Shown: in pieces, positions 2-15,300 of the stretch | Position numbering within the stretch: the stretch's first letter is position 1 | Layout: the number at the start of each line of letters is the position of its first letter | DNA from: Candidatus Eremiobacteria bacterium | GTDB taxonomy: Bacteria > Vulcanimicrobiota > Vulcanimicrobiia > Vulcanimicrobiales > Vulcanimicrobiaceae | DNA: 64,000 nucleotides | Reading direction: 5' to 3' | NCBI GenBank assembly: GCA_963737065.1 | Contig: CAVTRC010000001.1 | Coordinates: 1,472,001 to 1,536,000 of the forward strand | Notes under the pieces: model-generated | Databases searched by the model: none | The model's input: the letters and a program-made list of their open reading frames with translations, nothing else | Told to the model about the DNA's origin: nothing | Program-made: the position numbers and the translations under genes

Positions 2-265
2 CCCGCGGTGACACGTCGCGGACGCTATTGGGGCATCGCGCGCGGCAATCTTTCGACCGTACGGGTCGAGTACATTCCGCAAGACGCAAAAATCAAAGCT
101 GGTGACATCGTCGTCACGGGCGAAGGCCGTTCATTCCGCTCCGGCATTCCAATCGGCACGATTGCACGCGTCGAACGCGGCGATGCAACGCTCTATCAAA
201 CCGCAATTCTGCAACCGTCCGCTGATATCGGCTCCCTCGATCGCGTTGTCGTTGTCCCGAAATAG
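2..265 (+). CDS. mreC: Rod shape-determining protein MreC, C-terminal part (truncated by window edge)
   Basis: Motif IKAGDIVVTG...GIPIGTI...AILQPSADIGSLDRVVVV; lies directly upstream of mreD-mrdA. Confidence 0.9.
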   Translation, partial: PAVTRRGRYWGIARGNLSTVRVEYIPQDAKIKAGDIVVTGEGRSFRSGIPIGTIARVERGDATLYQTAILQPSADIGSLDRVVVVPK

Positions 266-773
266 GCTTCAACTTTCGCGTCCAATTGCTCCGACGTGGT
301 GGATTTCCGCGCTCTGGCTCATCGCGGCTGCACTGCTGCAGGTTACGCTCGTGCATCTTGCCGCATTTCGAAACGTTGTTCCGAGCATCGTCTTCGTTGC
401 CGTCGTGTGGTACGCAATCCGCGTCGATCTTTGGCAAGCTGCCGCATACGGGCTTGCGGGCGGATTGCTGGAAGATCTACTCGCTACGGGCACCGGAGCC
501 GCGTTTACTATCTCCACCGTAATCGGCGCAATTACCGCGCAAGTGATTTCGCGCGGATTTTTCGCCGATTCATTTCCACTCGTCGCGACGATCACGATAG
601 CCGCGACGTTCGCCCGTCAGTTAGTGTTTTGGGTCGTGTGGGGCTTCGAAGGCTATCCGCCGGGTCTGGCAACGATGCATTTTCACGAAGCGATCGTTCA
701 AGCCGCAATGAACGCCGCGGTCATGATGCTCGTTATGTTGGTCCTACGACGTTTTAGCGACGATTACGGATGA
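252..773 (+). CDS. mreD: Rod shape-determining protein MreD (start approximate)
   Basis: Hydrophobic multi-TM protein with GLAGGLLEDLL motif, between mreC and mrdA; TTG start at 252 chosen within ORF 102..773. Confidence 0.85.
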   Translation: MSRNRLQLSRPIAPTWWISALWLIAAALLQVTLVHLAAFRNVVPSIVFVAVVWYAIRVDLWQAAAYGLAGGLLEDLLATGTGAAFTISTVIGAITAQVISRGFFADSFPLVATITIAATFARQLVFWVVWGFEGYPPGLATMHFHEAIVQAAMNAAVMMLVMLVLRRFSDDYG

Positions 774-2641
774 TCGTCGACCGCCGGCGCGTACCGCGCA
801 TTTCATGGCAAAAATCGCCGTGGCGCATCGCGGGTTTTGCCACAATCGTCATCGCTGCGATCGTAGCGCTAATCGTTCGATTGGTTCAAGTCCAAGTGGT
901 GCAGGGCGAAGCGTTTCGCGCCGCGGCGCAAGCGAACCAGATTCGGTTGATCGAAGTCGCGGCGCCGCGCGGAATGATCCGCGACCGTAATGGCGACGTA
1001 ATGGTTCGCAGCCGTCCGTCGTTCGTCGTCGCGTTGATTCCTTCGGAAGTTACCGACGTCAAAGGCGATCTCCGTACGCTCGCTTCGATCCTCCGCGTTC
1101 CGGAATCGTCGCTGTGGCAACAGCTGCTTCATCATCACGGCGTCAATTACAAGAACTTCGACGAAGTTCAAGTCTACGAACCGTACGGTCCGGTCATCCT
1201 CGCCTCGGACTTGCCCGTCGCGAAAGTCGCGCGTCTATCGGAGCAAATGACCGACATGCCGGGCGTCGATCTCGAAGTGCAACCGATTCGCGATTATCCC
1301 AGAGGACCGGTCGGTGCAGCCGTCTTCGGCTACGTCGGCCAAATCACGGAAGCGGAATACACTAAGCGCAAAAACGAGGGCTACACGCCGAACGACGTTA
1401 TTGGTAAGGACGGGCTGGAGTGGGAGTACGACAAGTATCTGCGCGGCATTGCGGGCGGACAACAAGTCGTCGTCGATGCGCAAGGTCAAGTCGTGCCGAG
1501 CATCAAGCTGCCCTCGCGTCAAGCGACCCCAGGCGATACGCTCGTCACCACGATCGATTGGCGATTAGAACAGATCGTGCAACAAGCGCTCGTCGACGGC
1601 ATCCGTAAATGGGCCGGCAAGAAAAAACTCGCCGGGGGCGTCGTGGTCGAAGATCCGTGGACCGGCGGCATTCTTGCGATGGCGAGCGTGCCGCAATTCG
1701 ACCCGAACGACTTCGCTGCGGACAATTGGAAAAAAGTTTCGAAGTATCTGCTCGATCCCACCGATCCGTTGTTCAATAACGCAATCGGTGCAGCGACACC
1801 GACCGGTTCGACGTTCAAAATGGTAACGGGCAGCGGCGTCCTTACCGAAGGGCTCGTGAAGCCGCACGAAGTCGTCTACGACAGCGGCGCGTGGGACTGC
1901 GGCGGCTATATCGCGCGCGATATCGCGTCGGGCGGGCTCGGCAACACGACGTTCGTGCCGGCGCTCGCGGCGTCGTCCGACGGATTCTTCTACCAAATGG
2001 CGTGGCGCCTAGGACGCGTACGGCTAGAGAAGTGGGCGCGCCTTTTCGGACTAAGCTCGAAGACGGGAATCGATCTGCCGGGTGAAAACGCCGGCAACTG
2101 GCCGACGCCTGAATGGGAAATGAAGAATTTCGGCGTGCCCATGGAACCGAGCGAAGTGTGCATGCTCGGTATCGGCCAAGGCGCGATGCAAGCCACGCCG
2201 CTGCAGATGGTCAACATCGCATCCGCCGTCATCAACGGCGGCACGTTATGGCATCCGCATATCGCAAGCCGCATCATCGATCCGCACGGCAACGTCGTGA
2301 AGACGTTCTCGCCGCAAATCATTCGTCACATTCCCGCGAAGCAAGACGCGCTCAAATACGTGCGCGAAGGCATGGCGAAAGTAACCGATCCAGGCGGCAC
2401 CGCGTACGGCTGGAAAATCAAAGACTTGCCGTTCTCCGGCAAGACCGGTACAGCGGAAACGGGGAACGGCGCGGGCGCCAACACGACGTGGTTCATCGCC
2501 TGGGCGCCATCCGATCATCCGAAACTCGCGATGGCGGTCTTCGTCGACCGTTCCGGCGGTTACGGCGCGTCCGTCGCAGCGCCGATCGCACGCGACATTT
2601 TAGTGAAGTTCTTCAAGAAGTCGCCTGACATCATTCAGTAA
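770..2641 (+). CDS. mrdA: Penicillin-binding protein 2 (elongasome transpeptidase)
   Basis: N-terminal TM, APRGMIRDRNG, GKDGLE, catalytic STFK (SxxK), SSD and KTG motifs. Confidence 0.95.
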   Translation: MIVDRRRVPRISWQKSPWRIAGFATIVIAAIVALIVRLVQVQVVQGEAFRAAAQANQIRLIEVAAPRGMIRDRNGDVMVRSRPSFVVALIPSEVTDVKGDLRTLASILRVPESSLWQQLLHHHGVNYKNFDEVQVYEPYGPVILASDLPVAKVARLSEQMTDMPGVDLEVQPIRDYPRGPVGAAVFGYVGQITEAEYTKRKNEGYTPNDVIGKDGLEWEYDKYLRGIAGGQQVVVDAQGQVVPSIKLPSRQATPGDTLVTTIDWRLEQIVQQALVDGIRKWAGKKKLAGGVVVEDPWTGGILAMASVPQFDPNDFAADNWKKVSKYLLDPTDPLFNNAIGAATPTGSTFKMVTGSGVLTEGLVKPHEVVYDSGAWDCGGYIARDIASGGLGNTTFVPALAASSDGFFYQMAWRLGRVRLEKWARLFGLSSKTGIDLPGENAGNWPTPEWEMKNFGVPMEPSEVCMLGIGQGAMQATPLQMVNIASAVINGGTLWHPHIASRIIDPHGNVVKTFSPQIIRHIPAKQDALKYVREGMAKVTDPGGTAYGWKIKDLPFSGKTGTAETGNGAGANTTWFIAWAPSDHPKLAMAVFVDRSGGYGASVAAPIARDILVKFFKKSPDIIQ

Positions 2642-2657
2642 CGGCGACGCTCACTCG

Positions 2658-2978
2658 CTACGTCACGTGTGCTCTCGCCGCGATGACCATGAGGGCGGCG
2701 TCGGCCGCTTCGCGGACGGACTCGTCGGGATCGTCGCGGCGAAGTGTCCCGAGTTGATCGATACACCACGGTTCGCCGACCATCACCAGGCGTTCGACGA
2801 GGTCGAACCGGCCCGCGACGTCGAGTGACGGTTCCGTTTGCTCTTGCGGCTCCCGCGATGGTGCTTCGATCGCGTGCGTTGCTCGCCCGCGTCGCAGCAG
2901 CGCGCCGATGACGAAGAGCAGCGCGCCGATGACGAAGAGCGCTAAAAGAACGTTTGCGAGCGGGTTACTCGACAGCAA
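2658..2978 (-). CDS. Small membrane-anchored HEAT-repeat protein (paralog B'; start approximate)
   Basis: N-terminal TM (VLLALFVIGALLFVIGALL) then RRGR; C-terminal DDPDESVREAADAAL HEAT-like motif; overlaps the stop of the upstream large gene. Confidence 0.7.
   Translation of the reverse strand: MLSSNPLANVLLALFVIGALLFVIGALLRRGRATHAIEAPSREPQEQTEPSLDVAGRFDLVERLVMVGEPWCIDQLGTLRRDDPDESVREAADAALMVIAARAHVT
2897..2940. repeat. Perfect in-frame 21-bp tandem duplication (GCAGCGCGCCGATGACGAAGA x2)
   Basis: Copies at 2897-2917 and 2918-2938; encodes LFVIGAL twice in the TM helix. Confidence 0.9.
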
Positions 2979-5900
2979 TGTGCGCTGCACCGCGCAGCGC
3001 TTCCATAACGTCCGCAAGCCCGTCGTCGAGCGTACGGTTGACGCTGGAGGTCAATACGCGATGGAACTCTTCGATCGGCAGCTCGTTGAGGACGGTCAAG
3101 ACGTTGAGCAGCTCGGCTCGGTAGTGCTCGAGGCCGTCGACTCGGTTTTCGTCGTTAAAAATCGTCGTGCCGAGCAGCTGCGCGTTGATCAACCACGGTG
3201 CAACTCCACCGACGGGTACAACTTCGAGTTCGGGCAGTAACGCGCGAACGACATCAAGTTCGACGCTGCCCTCGACGCGAATCACGCCGTCCGGCGGGCT
3301 CTTCGGACGCCCGGTCGGCGCAAACGCGAGATCGTTCACTAGATTCACGAGAGCGTCGCGGCTTTCACGATCTTCGAGATCCTTGCCGGTGATCTGCAGT
3401 CGCGGCATGCGTAAACGCACGAAGAGTTTCTCGAGCGGCGCACGCAGCGCGCGACTCGCGGATGCGAAGGTTGCCGTGAGTTGCGGCGAACCGTCGGCGA
3501 CCGATTCCGGAAACAGCATCCGCATCGCGAAGAGATGCTGGATCAAGCCGCCTGCAGAATCACTGCGCTCCAGCATGCGTAGCGTATGGCCCAGACGCTC
3601 CGGCGTGAAATCGACGTATAGCACCGGCGTCGAAAAATCTTCGTGGAGCGCCGCAGCGGGCGCGACCAGTGCTTCGGTTTGCGCAGCGACGATCTCGGCG
3701 ATCGCGCGCGGCGGCTCCGATTCGACGATTTCCGGGTGCGGTTGTCGCTGCGGTTCTGCTTCGGGCGGTGGCGGCGGTTCGTACGCCGGTGCTTCAGCGG
3801 GAAAGATGCGCGCAATCGAAAGCGCACTGCCGGCAACGGATTCGCTGAGCGAGGGCTGCGCTTGGACGCGAACCGTCGGCGCGGCGATGGCAAACGTCGT
3901 CCCTTCGCCCCATTCGAAAACGGCCCGCGTGTCGAGCGGTGTTCCCGCGGCGAGCGGCGACATCACCATCATTTCCCAGCGAACGCGCAATTCGACCTGC
4001 GGATTCAGATCGGCGAGCACCAGACCCCGTGCGGACCACAATTGCGACGCACCGGCATCGTCGTTGACCGGCATGCCGTTGATCGTCGTGGACGACGGAA
4101 CGTACACCGCGAGATTCGTCGGAACAACGCGAATCGCCAACCGTTCCGCCGGACCGTCTCCCTCGTTGCGCAGGCGCACTTCGTAATACAGCCGTTCGCC
4201 GGCGTCGACCACTTCCGCCGGAATCGCGAACAACTGCGCGCTTTGCGCGAAGTGTGCTTCCGAATGCGTTGCAATATCGAGCGATGGAAACGGCACGGGG
4301 CTGATGCCTTTGGCGTGCAGCCATCCCTCGAGCGCCAGCGAGCGATTTCCACTAATCGCGCGCAACAATCGCAGTGTCACGCGGGCGGTGTGCGTGTTTT
4401 CGGCAGCGATATCGGCAAATGCAAGACCGTCCCGGTCGCGGCGCGCATCGACCGCGCGCTCGACAACGAGTTCGGGCGGCAGCGAGAGCGACAAACGTGC
4501 ATCGCGTAGAATATCCGAACCGCTGTTATGTACGCGAACGACGAGATCGACGGTGCGATTCGGACGCAGCGGTTCATGCGATTCCAGTTCCCACTCGACG
4601 CGATCGACGCTCGCGCGCGAACGCACGACGATCGATGCCGTGCCGAGATCGACCGCGCCGTCCGCGTGCTCTAACACAACCCCGAGCGATGCGGTCGAGC
4701 GATCGGGTACGCGCGACGCGATCGATGCATGCACCGTGAAGATTCGCTCCTGATGAGGCACCACAACCCCGAGTTCGACGGGGCCGGCATACAGGGACGG
4801 TTCAGCACCGCCTTCACTGACCCGAACGTCGGTGAGATACAGGCCCGGAACGAGACGCAAGCGAACGTCAGATTCCGCCGCCGTTCCGTCGTTGTAGACG
4901 TGAACGTCGAACGTGACCTCGTTGCGCGCGTGCGCGACGCTGTGATTTGCCTCAACGAAATTGCGCGCGCGGCTGAAACGCGGGGACACGCGCACTGCCA
5001 AACGCCGGCTGAACGAACGCTCACCGTTTTTCCAGCGCAACGATGCATCGATCGGCAGCACCGTTTTTCCGGCAGCGGGCACGGCAACAGTTGCGGCGAT
5101 GCCGACTTCCACCATTCGTCCAGCGGGAAGCGAGCCGAGCGAAAACGTGAGATCCGGAATCGAATCGTCGCTCACCGGCTGCGCGTCCATGTGCGCGGAA
5201 CCGGGCGCATACATCAGTCCGGCAGGCAGGACAAACGACACCTGCACGCGTTGCGCAATGCCGGTCCCATTATTCACCGCGCGTAGAATCATTGGAACTT
5301 GCATGCCGGGCGTCACTGCATCATCGCACAGGACGCTGAATGCAGTGTCTTCGCCGTCGAAATCAACCGGCGATACGACGACGATCTCGGCCGATGCGAT
5401 AGCAAATTCGGCCGATTCACGTGAACCGGCGGTCCCGGAAATTTTGATTCGTGTGCCGTCCGCGAGCGGTGAGTCAATCTGCGCCTGATATTCGACGAGC
5501 ACCGATTGTCCCGGCGAGAGACGCTCGCTGACGACGGTCGCGCTGTCGTAGTCAAACGCTTCGCCTTCGATGCCCGCGATGAGACGGCCGTCCACGCGCG
5601 CGCTACGCGCAATGTACGTCGTATGTTCGGGGGCGGGAAGAATCACCACGACATCGTGCGCGCTCGACGCGCCGCTGTTGCGAACGGTGGCGCGAATCGA
5701 AATGACATCGCCGGGATGGGGCTGCGCCGGCGCCGATAACGTCACGAGCGTCGACGCGTTGTGCAGTTCCGGACGGCTGCGTACCGCGACGCGGGCGATG
5801 TTCGACCCGACGAGCTCCGTTTGATCGGTGACGAGCGCTGCTTGGAACATCAGTTCGCTCGCGTCTTCGATGATGTCGTTGACGCGGAACGTGCACGTGA

Positions 5901-6210
5901 CGCGGCGCTGCGCGTTTGATTCGAGATCTGCAACTGGCGCGCCGTTGGGATCGATGAAACTCGCGTCGCTTTCCAGCGGCGCGTCGTCGACGAGATCGCC
6001 GCCGGCAACGTGCTCGCAGCCTTGCGGATGCGCAAAGCGCACGCGAAGGCCGGTCGCCGCCGCACCGCCAAGATTCGAAAAACTGAACGTCGCGCGAATC
6101 GTTTCCCCGGGAAGAACCGTGCGCGTGGGATCCAGCGCCAACGTCCGAAGGCTCTCGATCAAAGCCGGAGAGCCCGGGGCAAAAATGCCGGTCAACGACG
6201 TTGACGCCAC
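2965..6210 (-). CDS. Large protein with six DUF11-like Ig repeats, Pro/Glu linker and helical C-terminal domain (paralog B)
   Basis: Six repeats of P-G-x-x-(V/I)...N-x-G-x-x-x-A...P...Y..(G/S)S..(V/I)(D/N)G; no signal peptide or TM visible. Confidence 0.8.
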   Translation of the reverse strand: MASTSLTGIFAPGSPALIESLRTLALDPTRTVLPGETIRATFSFSNLGGAAATGLRVRFAHPQGCEHVAGGDLVDDAPLESDASFIDPNGAPVADLESNAQRRVTCTFRVNDIIEDASELMFQAALVTDQTELVGSNIARVAVRSRPELHNASTLVTLSAPAQPHPGDVISIRATVRNSGASSAHDVVVILPAPEHTTYIARSARVDGRLIAGIEGEAFDYDSATVVSERLSPGQSVLVEYQAQIDSPLADGTRIKISGTAGSRESAEFAIASAEIVVVSPVDFDGEDTAFSVLCDDAVTPGMQVPMILRAVNNGTGIAQRVQVSFVLPAGLMYAPGSAHMDAQPVSDDSIPDLTFSLGSLPAGRMVEVGIAATVAVPAAGKTVLPIDASLRWKNGERSFSRRLAVRVSPRFSRARNFVEANHSVAHARNEVTFDVHVYNDGTAAESDVRLRLVPGLYLTDVRVSEGGAEPSLYAGPVELGVVVPHQERIFTVHASIASRVPDRSTASLGVVLEHADGAVDLGTASIVVRSRASVDRVEWELESHEPLRPNRTVDLVVRVHNSGSDILRDARLSLSLPPELVVERAVDARRDRDGLAFADIAAENTHTARVTLRLLRAISGNRSLALEGWLHAKGISPVPFPSLDIATHSEAHFAQSAQLFAIPAEVVDAGERLYYEVRLRNEGDGPAERLAIRVVPTNLAVYVPSSTTINGMPVNDDAGASQLWSARGLVLADLNPQVELRVRWEMMVMSPLAAGTPLDTRAVFEWGEGTTFAIAAPTVRVQAQPSLSESVAGSALSIARIFPAEAPAYEPPPPPEAEPQRQPHPEIVESEPPRAIAEIVAAQTEALVAPAAALHEDFSTPVLYVDFTPERLGHTLRMLERSDSAGGLIQHLFAMRMLFPESVADGSPQLTATFASASRALRAPLEKLFVRLRMPRLQITGKDLEDRESRDALVNLVNDLAFAPTGRPKSPPDGVIRVEGSVELDVVRALLPELEVVPVGGVAPWLINAQLLGTTIFNDENRVDGLEHYRAELLNVLTVLNELPIEEFHRVLTSSVNRTLDDGLADVMEALRGAAHIAVE

Positions 6211-6259
6211 AAGCGTGTCTTTCCCTTCAACGAGAGTTGCGACCTATGGTAGCGCGCGC

Positions 6260-6667
6260 CTAGTCCGTACGTTGCGAGTCGAGCAGCAAGAGTGTCTGCG
6301 CGATCCGGTCGGCACGCAGGCCCGGGTGTTCGGCGAGAAACGATTCAACGCTGCGACGCCGGCCGCTCGAGATCAGCACGTGTGCAGCGGCCAGTGACAC
6401 CGCTTCCGCAGGATCGTTCAACGCGTGTTCGAGCAGCTGCTGAGACCGTTCGTCTTCGAGCGCCGCGACGGCAAAGACCAAGTCGCAACGGGCCGATTCG
6501 GAAAGCCCGGCGAACTCGTCGCCCGCTTCGTTCGTCCAATCGGTCGTCGCATACACCGGCTCTTCCGATCGCTGCACCGGTACACGCTCGGGCCGCCGGG
6601 GCGCCATCCATGCGTACACGCCGATTGCGGCGCCCGCGATGATGATAAGGATAACGGCGACGGTCAC
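6260..6667 (-). CDS. Small membrane-anchored HEAT-repeat protein (paralog A')
   Basis: GTG start 10 nt after the upstream stop; TM VAVILIIIAGAAIGVYAWM then PRRPER; HEAT-like ALNDPAEAVSLAAAHVL. Confidence 0.75.
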   Translation of the reverse strand: MTVAVILIIIAGAAIGVYAWMAPRRPERVPVQRSEEPVYATTDWTNEAGDEFAGLSESARCDLVFAVAALEDERSQQLLEHALNDPAEAVSLAAAHVLISSGRRRSVESFLAEHPGLRADRIAQTLLLLDSQRTD

Positions 6668-6677
6668 GAGCGTGAAC

Positions 6678-9600
6678 CTACACCGCGTGTGCGTGGAGCG
6701 ACGTGCGCACGACGTCGAGTGCGGCATCGAGCGCGATATCTCGCCGGCGCTGCAGCGCGTCGAGGAATTCGGCCGCATCCGTTTCCGCAAACGCGTCCAA
6801 CCGTTCGACCAGCATCGCGCGATAGTGCGCGAGCTGCGGCGTTCCATCGGGCAACAGCCGCGCAGCGATCGCCCATGGCAATGCCGATGCAAGTTCCGCG
6901 TCGGCGAGACGCTCGCTCATCTCCGCGATCTCCGAGGGATCGAACGCACCGCGCAGCACGACGTTGACGTTCGGCGTCTCCGCCGGCACACCGCGCGCGC
7001 CCGCAATCTCGTGCAGAAGTCGCTCGATCGTCGCTCGCATCGATGGCGTTTCGATGTCGCGGGCAGCGATGACGTAATTCGGCAAGCGCAGCTTGATGAA
7101 CAGACGATCGAGTTCCTCGCGCAGTACGTCGCGCATTGATGTTACGGACGTGATGTGCGTATCGCCGATTGCTTCGGGGAAGAAGGCGCGCAACGCGAAG
7201 AGATGGGTGATCAACCCGTCGAAGCGCGCTTCATCTAAGAAGCGAAGAATACGCGCGTGCCGGTCGGCGGTAAACGTCACCGCGACCCCGACGCCACCCT
7301 CTGCCGCGAGCGACCCTTCGACGACTCCCAATTCAAACGCGTCGGTGCCGGCGATCTCGTCTTGCACGCCGTTGCTCGCGGCGAGCGCCGGATACTCATT
7401 GTGCGCGAGCCAGCCGCGCGTCCCGTGCCCGTTGTGCGCGTCGCCGTTGACGGGCGTCGCGGGCGGAAGTTCCATGAAGCGCTCTTCGGTCAGTGCCCGC
7501 TGCGTCGCTCCGCCGAACGCCGGTCCGAGCATACCGTCCAAGCCGAACGGCAACCCCGGAATAGCATTTGCGAAGACGGGCGTCGCGCGCACCTTCAGTT
7601 CGTTCGATAGGATTTCGTCGTCGCGGTCGCCGTCGTAGCGGATGTTCGCGATACGAACGATCGCCTCGCCCGCCGGCAACTGGTTGTGCACGACATCACG
7701 GAAACGAATCGTTGCATCGACGCCGGGATCGACGTCGTTGAGCACGATGCCGCGCCCGCTCGCAAGCGCGGAGAGCGCTCCGACGTCGCGGATCGGCACG
7801 TCGTTGACCGTCGTGGAGTTCGGAACGTAAATGAGTTTGTCCGGCTGGCTGCAGAGGATTTGCACGCGGCGCGCCGGACCGTCGCCGCCGTTGCGGACGT
7901 GTAGCGCCCATTCGATCGTTTCACCCGCGTCGACCATATCCAACGGTTCGCTGCGCAGCGTGCCGACCGAGAAATCCGGCTCGGCCGTCGTAACGATCGT
8001 CAGCCGTTCGAGCGGCAGCGGCAACATCGCATCGGACGTCAAGACTGCATCCACGGTGACCGGAAACTCTCTCGCGAGACTGCGTAGCAAACGCAATCCG
8101 AGCCGAGCTTCCGCAGTGGCGCCCGGCGGAATCTCACCGAAGACGAGTTTCGACTTTTCGCGCGTCGCGCCGTCGACCGTCTCCAGCCGCGCTTCCGGCG
8201 AAACGTACAGACGCACGCGGACATTGTGCGCAACGTCAGTGCCGACGTTTGTCACACGAACGGCAACGTCGGCAAGCTGATTCGGACGCAACAGCTCTTC
8301 GCTTTCGAGTTGCAGATGTGACGTCAGCCGCGAGAACGCGGGATGGGAATCCACGCGCCAGAGCACATCGCCGAGCGGCGTTTCGCCGAGTTCACGTGAA
8401 TGGAGGCTTGCCCCGAGGCGCAATTCGCTGCGATCCGCATACGGCGTGCGCACGCGCGCGCGCACGTGAAACTTCCGCGTCGTGTACGGTTCGAGTGTTC
8501 CGATCTCGCCGGCATCGCCGTCGAGTGCGACCCGAGAAGCTTTTTCAGTTACCCGAATTTCATCGAGCGCCGAATCAACCCGCAGGTGCAGCACGCAATC
8601 GGTCGCCGGAGCACTGCCGTCGTTCGCAACGGCGATCGTTGCCTCCACTTCTTCGGCGGGACGCACGACGGCGGCGCCGACGCGTGCAATCGTGTTGCGG
8701 CGCGGTGCGAGCGACGGTTGCGAGTGCACGACGACGGTGCGTTCGAAACGGCGCTGCGATACCTCGGCCGATGGCTCCCACTCGACGTTCGCAGCGATCG
8801 CGAGCGCTGCGCCGTCGGCAAGCGGCGATGTGACGATCGCTTCACAGTGCAGGTCGACACGTTCATCCGCATCGATCCGCCCGAGTTCAAAAACGAGTCC
8901 GTCTTTTTTCTTCGCTTCGCGCAGCGGGCGCCCGTCGATTTGTGTTGCGCCGCGAACGGGAATCAGCGTATCCGGTAGTTCGATCGTCGCAACGACGCCT
9001 TCGGCCGCGGCCGACCCGGCGTTGTGTGCGCAAAGCGCGAGCGTTACGCGTTGTCCCGGGCGAACATCGTGCGTCGGCTCGACGGTAAATGACGTGCCGT
9101 CGCCGTCGAAGTGCGGCGCGGCACGGACGACGAGCGATGCGGGCTGCAGCTCGAATGCGGCGGTCTCTTGTGACGCGACCGATGCACGCGCGGAGATCAC
9201 GGTTCCGTCGTCGAGCGGTGAATCGATGCGCACGCGATAGACGAGCGTGGTGCTGCCGCTTGCAGGCAGCGCGGTCGTGACGATCGGCGCATACACGCGA
9301 TCGAACGGTAAGCCGAGATCGCGTTCGACCTCGCGTCCATTGACGCGGACCGAGCCGGGCACGTAGCTCGTATGTTCCGGAACCGGCGCAACGACCACGA
9401 CGTCGCGCGCGCTCGATTCACCCGCATTGTGCAACCGAACGGTGATGTGCGCTTCCGTTCCGGGCAGCGGTTCGGAACGCGCTTCGATTGCAACACTGGT
9501 CAGCGCATTTTCCAGCTGCGGCCGGCTGCGCGCAATCAGGCGCACGATGTTCGAGCCGACCGGCGCGACTTCGAAGGAAGCCACCGCGGCCTGCAGTTCG

Positions 9601-9962
9601 ATCGTCGTTCCGTTTTCGATTGCACCCGCTACGCTGTATGCAATTTCAAGGCGGCGTTCTTCGCCGGGACCGACGTCCCCGATGTGCGCACCCGCTCGCG
9701 CGAGCAGCGGCGAATTGCCCTGTTCGTCGTCGAGATCCGCGCCGTCGAGTTGCCCGGTACTGACGAGATACACGAGTCCGTCGGGTAAATTAAAACGCAC
9801 GCGGACACCGGTTGCGAGCGCTCCGCCTTGATTGCGAAACGTAAATGCAGCACGCACCGTCATTCCAGGTTCCAACTCGCGGTCGGGCGAAACGACGAGC
9901 GTTCGGAGACCTTCCGGTAACGTCGGAGCTCCTGGCGCAAAAACTTCGGAGAGCGTGCGCAT
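6678..9962 (-). CDS. Large protein with six DUF11-like Ig repeats and helical C-terminal domain (paralog A)
   Basis: ATG at 9962 (MRTLSEVFAPGAP) aligns with the N-terminus of the paralog (LTGIFAPGSP); six N-x-G Ig repeats; no signal peptide. Confidence 0.8.
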   Translation of the reverse strand: MRTLSEVFAPGAPTLPEGLRTLVVSPDRELEPGMTVRAAFTFRNQGGALATGVRVRFNLPDGLVYLVSTGQLDGADLDDEQGNSPLLARAGAHIGDVGPGEERRLEIAYSVAGAIENGTTIELQAAVASFEVAPVGSNIVRLIARSRPQLENALTSVAIEARSEPLPGTEAHITVRLHNAGESSARDVVVVAPVPEHTSYVPGSVRVNGREVERDLGLPFDRVYAPIVTTALPASGSTTLVYRVRIDSPLDDGTVISARASVASQETAAFELQPASLVVRAAPHFDGDGTSFTVEPTHDVRPGQRVTLALCAHNAGSAAAEGVVATIELPDTLIPVRGATQIDGRPLREAKKKDGLVFELGRIDADERVDLHCEAIVTSPLADGAALAIAANVEWEPSAEVSQRRFERTVVVHSQPSLAPRRNTIARVGAAVVRPAEEVEATIAVANDGSAPATDCVLHLRVDSALDEIRVTEKASRVALDGDAGEIGTLEPYTTRKFHVRARVRTPYADRSELRLGASLHSRELGETPLGDVLWRVDSHPAFSRLTSHLQLESEELLRPNQLADVAVRVTNVGTDVAHNVRVRLYVSPEARLETVDGATREKSKLVFGEIPPGATAEARLGLRLLRSLAREFPVTVDAVLTSDAMLPLPLERLTIVTTAEPDFSVGTLRSEPLDMVDAGETIEWALHVRNGGDGPARRVQILCSQPDKLIYVPNSTTVNDVPIRDVGALSALASGRGIVLNDVDPGVDATIRFRDVVHNQLPAGEAIVRIANIRYDGDRDDEILSNELKVRATPVFANAIPGLPFGLDGMLGPAFGGATQRALTEERFMELPPATPVNGDAHNGHGTRGWLAHNEYPALAASNGVQDEIAGTDAFELGVVEGSLAAEGGVGVAVTFTADRHARILRFLDEARFDGLITHLFALRAFFPEAIGDTHITSVTSMRDVLREELDRLFIKLRLPNYVIAARDIETPSMRATIERLLHEIAGARGVPAETPNVNVVLRGAFDPSEIAEMSERLADAELASALPWAIAARLLPDGTPQLAHYRAMLVERLDAFAETDAAEFLDALQRRRDIALDAALDVVRTSLHAHAV

Positions 9963-10046
9963 GACGCGAGACGCTTCGACAGGCGCAGGGCGCCCCCTTG
10001 ATTCGCTTACATTGAGTTTGTCTAAATTTTGAAAGGCTTTGAGTCG

Positions 10047-11243
10047 ATGTTGGCAGTGCACGATAAACGGATTGCGGACGCGGTTGCTCGCTTAGGTGCG
10101 GAGAACGCATTCCAAGTGTTAGCACGCGCCCGAGAGATTGAGGCGACGGGTCGTCGTGTCGTCCACATGGAGATCGGTGAACCCGATTTCGATACGCCGA
10201 AGCACATCAAAGACGCCGCGGTCGCCTCGCTGATGGCGCACGACACCCACTACACGCCGTCGGCAGGTATCATGCAACTGCGCGAAACGATCGCTGATTA
10301 CGCGACGCGATTTCGCAAAATGCCGAAGCCGTACACGCATGCCAACGTCACCGTCGCACCGGGTGCGAAACCGATCATCTGGAATATTTTGAGTGCGATC
10401 CTCAATCCAGGTGACGACTTCATCTACTTCGATCCCGCGTATCCGGCATACGGGTCAGCGTCGTCGTATCTGCAGGCAAACGTCACCCGCATCCCGCTGC
10501 GCGAATCGCGTGACTGGCGGATGGATCTCGACGAACTGGCCAGTCGCGTGAGCCATCACACGAAAGCCATAGTGATCAACTCGCCGCATAATCCGACCGG
10601 CGGCGTTCTGCTGCGCGAAGATCTCGAACGCATCGCCGAGCTTGCACAGAAATACGATTTCCTCGTCATCGCCGACGAAATCTATAGCCGCAACTTTTAC
10701 CTCGATACCGAATTCATCTCGATCGCGTCGCTACCCGGCATGCAAGACCGTACGATCGTCGTTGACGGCTTCTCAAAAGCGTATGCGATGACCGGATGGC
10801 GTCTCGGCTATGCAATCATGCCGGAAGACATCTGCAAGATCGTCACGCTCTTCAATAACAACACATTCAGCTGCGTTGCGACGTTCGTGCAAAAGGCCGG
10901 CGTCGCGGCGCTCACAGGCGATGACGCGCCGGTGCGTGAGATGAACGAAATTTTCCGTACGCGGCGCGACAAATTGGTCAAAGGCCTCAACGAGATTCCG
11001 AGCATGAGCTGTACGCTGCCCGAAGGCGCGTTCTACGCGTTCCCCAACGTCAAACAAATCACGAAGAACGATCGGGCACTAGCGAGCTTCCTCTTAGAAG
11101 AAGGCGGCATCGCGTGCGGCGGCGGCTCCTCTTTCGGCCCCGCCGGTGAAGGCTATCTTCGCTTCTCCTACGCCGCCTCGCTCGATGACATCGACTACGC
11201 GCTCTCGCAAATCCGCGCCGTGTTGCCGAAGTTCAACGGCTAA
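10047..11243 (+). CDS. PLP-dependent class I/II aminotransferase (aspartate aminotransferase-like)
   Basis: GEPDFDTP, NSPHNPTG, ADEIY, GFSKAYAMTGWRLG motifs. Confidence 0.93.
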   Translation: MLAVHDKRIADAVARLGAENAFQVLARAREIEATGRRVVHMEIGEPDFDTPKHIKDAAVASLMAHDTHYTPSAGIMQLRETIADYATRFRKMPKPYTHANVTVAPGAKPIIWNILSAILNPGDDFIYFDPAYPAYGSASSYLQANVTRIPLRESRDWRMDLDELASRVSHHTKAIVINSPHNPTGGVLLREDLERIAELAQKYDFLVIADEIYSRNFYLDTEFISIASLPGMQDRTIVVDGFSKAYAMTGWRLGYAIMPEDICKIVTLFNNNTFSCVATFVQKAGVAALTGDDAPVREMNEIFRTRRDKLVKGLNEIPSMSCTLPEGAFYAFPNVKQITKNDRALASFLLEEGGIACGGGSSFGPAGEGYLRFSYAASLDDIDYALSQIRAVLPKFNG

Positions 11244-14130: not shown

Positions 14131-15300
14131 ATGCGCACTCCCGTATTCCTTGCACTATCAGCAACGCTCGCGCTTACCGCCTGCGGCGGGGGTAGCGGCG
14201 GCACGTCGAGCGGCGGAAACGCGCCGATACCAAATCCGACATCGGGCGGCGGACTCTCGTCGCAGGCGCAAGCCGAAACCGCAATCACGGTTGCGAATTC
14301 TCTCGGCGACCCGGTAAAAAACGTCACGAATTTCAACAATGCCGTATCCGGCGCATCGGCCGTCATGCGAGGCGGACAAGTCATCGCCATGACGGGCGGC
14401 GCGGGCGAATGCACGAACGGAATTGAATTTTTCGCGCCCGATAAGAATAACGATCCGAACTCGACCGAAGCGCAGTACTTCTACGACAGCGGATGCACGG
14501 AGCTCGCTCGTGACATCGTGCGAATTTTCGCCGTCAACGGCACCTCGGAGACCGTAAACCGAACGGAAAAACAGTACGCGATCGACAACTCCTCGCCGAC
14601 CGCGCAGCGCACGAGCACGGTGGCTTTTATCAACGGCAGCTACAACGTCGACGGGTTCCCCAACGTTGCGCACGGCTTCGATCGCTCAGCAACGAGCGAA
14701 CTCGACATCAGCGGCGCGAAAACGCTGCTGAACGACGACGAACTCGTGATGCTTGCGGGCAGCAACGGCGTCAACGCATACTGCTCGGATACCGCCGGCT
14801 ATAACGCGACCGGAATCCCGTCGCTAAACGAAACGTTCGGCAGTGAAGGCGGCACCTCGAGCGGCACGCGCACCGTGAACACGGATGGCTCGGTCACGTG
14901 GCAATCGACGAACAGCGGTACCGCCTATAAAGGCGCGATCGGGTCGTTCGCGATCAACATCGGTTCAGCGAATACCGCGTGCCCGATCGCGGCGCCCGAG
15001 TACACGCTCTCGGGCGGCACGCCCGTGGGAACGTATTCCGTTCCGGTGAGCGCCACATTCAGCCGCGGTTTGCTGACGAACCTTACCGTGACAAACGCGC
15101 AATTGGCGAACGGCAATACGCTCAACGTATCGACGAACGGCGGCGTCCAACCGCAGAACAGCCAGTTCATCACCGGGACGATCGGCAACAACGGCACACA
15201 AATCGCAACGTTTGCGGTAGACGCGTTCGGCGACGGAACGCTCACGGTGACGCGCAGCGGAGCACAATACGTCATGAGTGACTGGCACGTCGTGAAGTAA
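14131..15300 (+). CDS. Beta-rich Gly/Thr/Asn-rich lipoprotein of unknown function
   Basis: Lipobox LTAC followed by a GGGSGG linker; GAGG RBS upstream. Confidence 0.8.
   Translation: MRTPVFLALSATLALTACGGGSGGTSSGGNAPIPNPTSGGGLSSQAQAETAITVANSLGDPVKNVTNFNNAVSGASAVMRGGQVIAMTGGAGECTNGIEFFAPDKNNDPNSTEAQYFYDSGCTELARDIVRIFAVNGTSETVNRTEKQYAIDNSSPTAQRTSTVAFINGSYNVDGFPNVAHGFDRSATSELDISGAKTLLNDDELVMLAGSNGVNAYCSDTAGYNATGIPSLNETFGSEGGTSSGTRTVNTDGSVTWQSTNSGTAYKGAIGSFAINIGSANTACPIAAPEYTLSGGTPVGTYSVPVSATFSRGLLTNLTVTNAQLANGNTLNVSTNGGVQPQNSQFITGTIGNNGTQIATFAVDAFGDGTLTVTRSGAQYVMSDWHVVK

Follow-up and report, generated by a model that had tools for sequence, protein, structure and literature searches.

A predicted membrane-tethered array of DUF11-type immunoglobulin repeats that is co-lost with motility genes in Vulcanimicrobiota

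Surface stalks built from DUF11-type immunoglobulin (Ig) repeats are described as carrying a CLIPPER isopeptide bond that involves a lysine in the first strand, and some DUF11 domains lack it (bioRxiv 2025.04.25.650565). Two other settings for these repeats are on record. GhlA of Litorilinea, the protein of a surface filament, has 49 DUF11 repeats and no signal peptide but an N-terminal transmembrane (TM) segment of its own (bioRxiv 2025.08.19.671072), and spore proteins of Clostridium taeniosporum and Bacillus, which are endospore formers, carry DUF11 repeats as well (PMC5749712). Here we describe a gene module that pairs two large DUF11-repeat proteins, A and B, with two small putative membrane anchors, A' and B', each with a HEAT-like domain. 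It lies in a 64,000-nucleotide stretch of DNA (the window) from a Candidatus Eremiobacteria bacterium of the Vulcanimicrobiota (Eremiobacterota), the phylum to which named homologues also assign the host. Like the DUF11/CLIPPER adhesin stalks, A and B contain tandem DUF11-type Ig repeats that score above the Pfam and NCBIfam cut-offs. In contrast to the stalks, they have no signal peptide, no adhesion or sorting domain and no isopeptide lysine, they end in a novel C-terminal domain (the tail) with a cognate membrane anchor, and they are probably cytoplasmic. GhlA and the spore proteins share the DUF11 repeats with A and B, whereas neither the tail nor a HEAT partner is seen in the descriptions of them consulted here.

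The functional analogues are of a different kind. HubP/FimV, a hub that is anchored in the membrane and has a large portion in the cytoplasm, is tied to flagellar motility and to chemotaxis placement, and it combines a periplasmic LysM domain and a C-terminal FimV/TPR domain in a single TM protein (PMC12918733). The likeness of the module to HubP/FimV, and to array positioning by ParC/ParP, is a functional analogy only. Compared with HubP/FimV, the module is made of two polypeptides, its Ig repeats would be cytoplasmic, it has no periplasmic part and it shows no sequence match; LysM and FimV_C/TPR domains were not found in any of the four proteins with Pfam or NCBIfam profiles. No description of the tail or of the pair was found in the openly available main texts searched, and no known family covers either. 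The module appears to be a new kind of system, with a strong anatomy and an inferred function.

All four genes are on the minus strand, tightly spaced and co-oriented, as a first-pass annotation of the window had reported: A (6678..9962, 1094 aa), A' (6260..6667, 135 aa), B (2965..6210, 1081 aa) and B' (2658..2978, 106 aa), the last with a TTG start and overlapping the stop of B. From its N terminus, A comprises a conserved segment and six DUF11-type Ig repeats, after which a disordered linker leads to a helical tail; B is a paralogue with the same architecture and has its tail at 3633-2968. A' consists of a single N-terminal TM segment, basic residues, a linker, a Trp motif and HEAT-like helices, and B' of a single TM segment and a minimal three-helix HEAT-like core. 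Judged from the sequences, the four genes are two tandem copies (A-A' and B-B') of a unit of two genes. The idea that the four-gene order would be conserved did not hold; what is conserved instead is the two-gene pair. The sister family and several deep genera have single pairs at this locus. Some genomes carry further module pairs at two other loci.

A and B share 35% identity over 802 aligned residues (BLASTP, E 9e-131); their tails are not aligned by BLASTP, yet both fit one alignment. Both proteins match DUF11 (PF01345; E 3.5e-29 and 101.9 bits for A, E 9.8e-23 and 81.1 bits for B, cut-off 24.6) and TIGR01451 (81.4 and 65.6 bits, cut-off 24). An AlphaFold2 model of A, built from 97 sequences and with a mean predicted local distance difference test (pLDDT) score of 82.6, has six beta-sandwich repeats in a beta-rich region at residues 18-794 (7581..9911, minus strand), disorder at 797-888 and the helical tail at 889-1094 (6681..7298, minus strand). 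The earlier view of A and B as colinear paralogues with six DUF11-like repeats, a linker and a helical tail is borne out by these matches and the model. Foldseek of the full model returned chains of the ciliary central apparatus, which we take to be of the ASH type, as best matches (E to 4e-24, TM-score 0.1-0.2, identity ~10%), and VIA ranked integrin legs and pilins first. These matches appear to reflect likeness of the tandem Ig fold only, not homology. The central-apparatus scaffolds offer a precedent for intracellular Ig arrays, and their likeness to A is one of generic fold.

Several features suggest that A and B are probably cytoplasmic. Neither contains a segment of TM strength (best 19-residue Kyte-Doolittle values 1.43 and 1.54), nor does any of the 58 long tail-bearing representatives (best 19-residue hydropathy 2.01). 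The start Met is conserved and an in-frame stop lies at most 15 codons upstream in 28/110 full-length genes, which together exclude an upstream start that would supply a signal peptide; the first-pass statement that both proteins lack a signal peptide and TM segment therefore stands. A Pfam scan found no adhesion or sorting domain in A or B, and by hydropathy analysis the N terminus is not hydrophobic. Across the 97 sequences a conserved Lys column is absent from every first strand, and a CLIPPER isopeptide is therefore not expected. A composition classifier for exported versus cytoplasmic proteins, trained on the genome (area under the curve 0.89), scores the tails and HEAT domains as cytoplasm-like (0.02-0.13).

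The tail of A is a helical domain of 206 aa that was folded alone at pLDDT 93.5. Pfam and PDB sequence searches gave no significant match to it, Foldseek of the model against the PDB gave no match at E<=0.001, and the ESM Atlas held no usable match; the best VIA match (Z 6.0, root-mean-square deviation 5.5, 129 aligned residues) is not a clear fold match. A match to a characterised family, which had been considered at the outset, was thus not found, and in its model the tail is apparently a new fold. The first and second halves of the tail are similar (75% in a profile comparison), and the domain probably arose when a ~100-aa beta-alpha unit was duplicated internally. When 1.84 billion representatives were searched by profile, 261 proteins matched; among the 149 listed, all 58 of at least 760 aa have the tail at the C-terminal end. 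Ten divergent tail proteins were checked for taxonomy, and one cluster is named (Ca. Velthaea). The tails of A and B form separate clades. Six residues, D952, R953, F955, I956, K957 and R959, are invariant in 81/81 A-type tails, and H920, D969, E971 and R976 are conserved polar residues.

The small proteins had been described as paralogues. BLASTP does not align A' with B' (E 3.4), but their family profiles do align (hhalign 91%, E 9.4e-7), including the ARCDLV/GRFDLV and DPAEAVSLAA/DPDESVREAA motifs on which that claim was based. The HEAT domain of A' spans 94 aa; A' itself matches HEAT_2 at E 0.0047, below the Pfam curated cut-off, and 77/81 A' orthologues match at E<=0.01 (best 4e-7). An N-terminal TM segment was called in 134 of 150 distinct anchors. 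Lysine and arginine are in excess after it in 131 of these 134, equal in three and reversed in none, and by the positive-inside pattern a cytoplasmic C terminus is therefore predicted. The small protein is thus predicted to be a single-pass inner-membrane anchor with its HEAT domain facing the cytoplasm. The window also encodes what we take to be lipid A and BamA-like genes. The cultured relative is diderm (PMC9758169). In the sister family and several deep genera, one large gene stands with a longer anchor at the aminotransferase-mrdA locus. A' and B' each match a different part of this longer ancestral anchor, yet align mutually from the TM segment on; they may be two halves of it, and an internal deletion explains them equally well.

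Large and small genes are strictly paired. The 220 tail hits reduce to 169 distinct loci, 165 of them with at least 800 nt downstream, and a TM-HEAT gene lies downstream of the tail in 157/165 according to hidden Markov models that were built partly from the same loci. By eye, the remaining eight comprise three divergent small TM-HEAT-like genes, one frameshift-ridden locus with an in-frame anchor, one inverted B' and three fusions, so that the supposed co-occurrence of large and small genes is found across genomes. The inverted B' (L102:7027-7356) is reversed relative to a tail-only B gene, either as a real inversion or as an assembly error. The two genes are also lost together (L167-L170, and 3/5 in a second inspected set), and module-less genomes have a clean aminotransferase-mrdA junction (4/4 inspected). 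Genus g38 shows a fusion in all three of its genomes: A' is joined to a B-type tail, and B' and the Ig repeats of B are lost. The fusion is a protein of 393 aa with a TM segment, an A'-type HEAT domain and a B-type tail (L165:10561-11742 in G126, also G199 and G255). In genus g44, only the tail is left of B, and B' is still present. These two arrangements suggest that it is the tail that is anchored.

A model of the A tail with the cytoplasmic domain of A', a complex that the first-pass annotation had proposed to model, scored 0.80 against 0.01 for the best control, with at least 81% contact agreement between runs and a partner pLDDT of at least 84. The mark set for this score was reached by 116/157 solved and 2/215 mismatched pairs, counts that are only a rough guide for the present alignments. 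Recall of a known complex by the model is unlikely, because no solved relative of the tail was found. The modelled interface sets D952, R953, F955, I956, K957 and R959 of the tail against conserved A' residues, and together with their invariance it defines a predicted docking helix at D952-P961 (7080..7109, minus strand). Residue co-evolution between tail and A' gave a top z of 7.4 versus 6.7-7.2 for shuffled pairing, a comparison that is underpowered at an effective number of sequences (Meff) of 54. The complex model supports binding, in which the DRLFIKLR helix of the A tail is predicted to dock on the A' HEAT domain. Many genomes carry A-A' only, so the A:B heteromer suggested earlier is not needed.

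We propose that the small protein is anchored in the inner membrane and exposes its HEAT domain to the cytoplasm, and that the large protein stays unexported, its DRLFIKLR helix clipping into the HEAT domain. The ~90-aa flexible linker would then present six conserved Ig domains below the membrane as a protein-binding or self-assembling array. The unit underwent a duplication in the host clade, with each large protein retaining its own anchor. We consider this anatomy probable, with an anchor in the inner membrane, a tail clipped on and the Ig array as a conserved cytoplasmic binding surface. Gene pairing, anchor topology, the anchor-tail fusion and the controlled complex model all favour the earlier suggestion of a cytoplasmic Ig-repeat protein tethered by a HEAT adaptor.

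The same parts could instead serve signalling or sequestration, with the anchor keeping the tail at the membrane until a signal frees it and the tail or Ig array regulating a cytoplasmic partner, for example in motility gene control or cyclic di-GMP (c-di-GMP) signalling. Such a role would fit the retention of the tail without Ig repeats in two lineages, the conserved H920, D969, E971 and R976, which are not named in the modelled interface, and a paralogous module locus from which genes for a CRP-family regulator and a GGDEF protein diverge. However, Pfam and NCBIfam profile searches detected no sensor, enzyme or DNA-binding domain in the module proteins, and the permanent fusion of anchor and tail in g38 argues against a needed release. 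We regard this explanation as distinctly improbable.

A further alternative sees A and B as fibres or adhesins of the cell surface that are exported independently of a signal peptide, for example through the flagellar or a second type III gate, with the small proteins as membrane-bound chaperones. Two points count against a cytoplasmic array here: characterised DUF11 proteins are surface proteins, the DUF11/CLIPPER domains being adhesin stalks (bioRxiv 2025.04.25.650565), and the Ig arrays themselves score ambiguously in the composition classifier (0.35 and 0.49 exported-like). Export would also fit the accounts of the signal-less Litorilinea surface filament, though that protein has an N-terminal TM segment, and of DUF11 in spore appendage proteins, as well as the two FlhA-family gates of the host and the conservation of the N-terminal 20 residues of the large protein. 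On the other hand, 11 of 14 genomes without a match to the FlhA family (PF00771) keep the module, with an intact A in the four that were checked, which rules out type III export as a requirement and weakens the non-Sec export route that the first-pass annotation had offered as its alternative. The g38 fusion would lock the tail to an inner-membrane anchor, and the isopeptide lysines are absent. Conservation of A is similar to that of PBP2, with median differences of -3 (18 loci) and -2 points (47 loci) with and without B, respectively, unlike that of fast-evolving adhesins. Export of A and B thus seems highly improbable.

The distribution of the module provides a potential clue to what the tethered array does. 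The tail is present in 126/170 genomes of the host family and 3/3 of its sister family, both within Vulcanimicrobiota, and in 0/77 genomes from 17 other families. Within the host family, the module occurs in 70/70 genomes with FliG and 56/100 without, and in 77/77 with CheA and 49/93 without. All 44 module-less family genomes lack both CheA and FliG, and complete loss is seen in none of the 78 genomes that have either. Among the 101 module-bearing genomes of the A/B-duplication clade, 52 have B with CheA, 46 have neither and three are discordant, after split or contig-broken matches were corrected by hand for nine genomes; the distribution tallies include the unpublished genomes G212, G244 and G236. 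In G050 the copy at this locus is lost together with the flagellum. This co-loss with flagellar and chemotaxis genes is an addition to what had been noted before. The chemotaxis genes that g44, G195 and G050 still carry are left over from the flagellar operon, so the flagellum and chemotaxis are inseparable as correlates. The decaying operons are found in G136 (L295), G195 (L297) and G050 (L299), where cheY-cheC-cheA-cheW are left and cheA is interrupted in G050.

Other correlates were rejected. Photosynthetic reaction-centre genes occur in 15/170 family genomes, only six of which have the module, and PilT, as a marker of type IV pili, in 84/170, with at least nine PilT-bearing genomes lacking the module and 26 module-bearing g31 genomes lacking PilT. 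FlhA is misleading as a flagellar marker, a second paralogue being nearly universal.

We hypothesized that the likeliest client of the array is the flagellar or chemotaxis machinery, whose arrays or motors it would position or anchor, as polar hubs do. A membrane-tethered cytoplasmic scaffold that serves this machinery among other clients is, in our analysis, an evenly balanced prospect; the binding partner of the Ig array, a polar location and the role in motility are what we infer. A third paralogue in the same genome bears on this prospect and on a bolder version of it. This 491-aa protein (G000:C1:220824-222299) has a single Ig repeat of the A/B family, joined through a Pro-rich linker to a helical domain with a similar motif, and no adjacent anchor gene; for it, the ESM Atlas gave only DUF11 leads, all under 0.9. 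It lies behind an ExeA-like AAA ATPase gene next to fliS, an order that is the same in 30 loci where the contig allows and in a further set of inspected loci, and it is present in 72/170 family genomes, 65 of them with FliG. It may be that the order evolved its own polar hub from inward-turned adhesin parts, with an Ig lattice that a new HEAT-helix clip keeps beneath the inner membrane and that positions chemosensory arrays and flagellar motors, and with the third paralogue, coupled to the ATPase in the flagellar locus, joining this hub to the flagellum through the same docking motif, a version that we hold to be rather doubtful.

Several observations weigh against a link to motility. The helical domain of the third paralogue resembles the tail weakly (hhalign 12% over the whole domain, 84% for half-domains), flagellated families outside the host's order have no tail, and the module lies outside any motility operon. 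A quick GyrB tree with 61 genomes assigns complete loss to just two clades, neither of which has flagella or CheA, and loss or erosion of B to about five or six non-flagellated lineages, with several forks unresolved; the genome counts overstate the association because independent loss events are few. There are also individual mismatches. G195 retains CheA without B, G243 has a full B without FliG, flagellin or CheA in a fragmented 270-contig assembly, and G237 (with CheA) and G154 (with FliG) lack the copy at this locus and keep another. Finally, 49 genomes that lack CheA still carry A, which is intact and just as conserved there. Judged from these sequences, B-B' is most likely the motility-linked copy, and A-A' would in addition serve a purpose that persists after motility is lost.

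The few losses and the strong conservation of A in non-motile lineages would also fit the same tethered complex in a general envelope, shape or division role, in which co-loss with motility reflects a shared lifestyle change and the mreCD-mrdA site is meaningful. The module converges on genes that we take to be mreD-mrdA (252..2641, plus strand) across a gap of 16 nt, and this position is conserved in both families; on its other side is a divergent gene, presumably for an aminotransferase (10029..11243, plus strand). Both flanks are syntenic and outside the system. The convergence noted in the first-pass annotation is therefore real, but the link looks like synteny only, because paralogous modules occur at two other loci and because genomes that have lost the module show no change in mreCD-mrdA. 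The module is on the opposite strand to mreCD-mrdA and so shares no operon with it, 44/170 genomes lack the module, with mreCD-mrdA intact where inspected, and the 78 genomes with FliG or CheA show no complete loss. A general envelope role accordingly seems unlikely, and the scaffold with flagellar and chemotaxis clients remains our preferred reading.

A promoter scan of the module found no sigma-70-like site, and terminator-like sites were at chance level. In the deep genera maf and mreC are separated by an mreB-like gene (L151, L154, L157, L162, L170), which is missing from the maf-mreC operon in the window's clade (window, L165, L167-L169). At 14131-15300 the window encodes a lipoprotein-like protein of 389 aa with a high content of Gly, Ser, Thr and Asn, which is probably exposed at the surface. 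Elsewhere in the genome, the genes for the ExeA-like AAA ATPase, the third paralogue and a glycosyltransferase-like protein form a cluster by fliS/fliD (G000:C1:219877-223063; L181:5878-9064) that is confined to the two module families. A second set of type III export genes, derived from a flagellum (G000:C1:2081532-2101992; L294), comprises what we take to be FlgC-, FliE-, FliF-, FliH-, FliI-, FliN-, FliP/Q/R-, FlhB- and FlhA-like genes, and neither motor nor filament genes were seen close to it; its FlhA paralogue is found in most of the host family, including non-flagellated genomes, and in 18/19 genomes of family f3. A separate cluster of DUF11/SdrD_B-type repeat proteins (G000:C1:659231-664297; L182) is unrelated to the tail family.

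The reach of the module is confined to one order. DUF11 repeats have been described as extracellular stalks, and a cytoplasmic, membrane-clipped array would, if true, broaden this picture and bring in what is apparently a new fold, together with a compact docking pair, the 206-aa tail and the 94-aa HEAT domain. The module is a specific candidate for the organisation of motility machinery in an abundant, barely cultured soil phylum, and its natural variants, which are single, duplicated, tail-only, fused or deleted, predict phenotypes.

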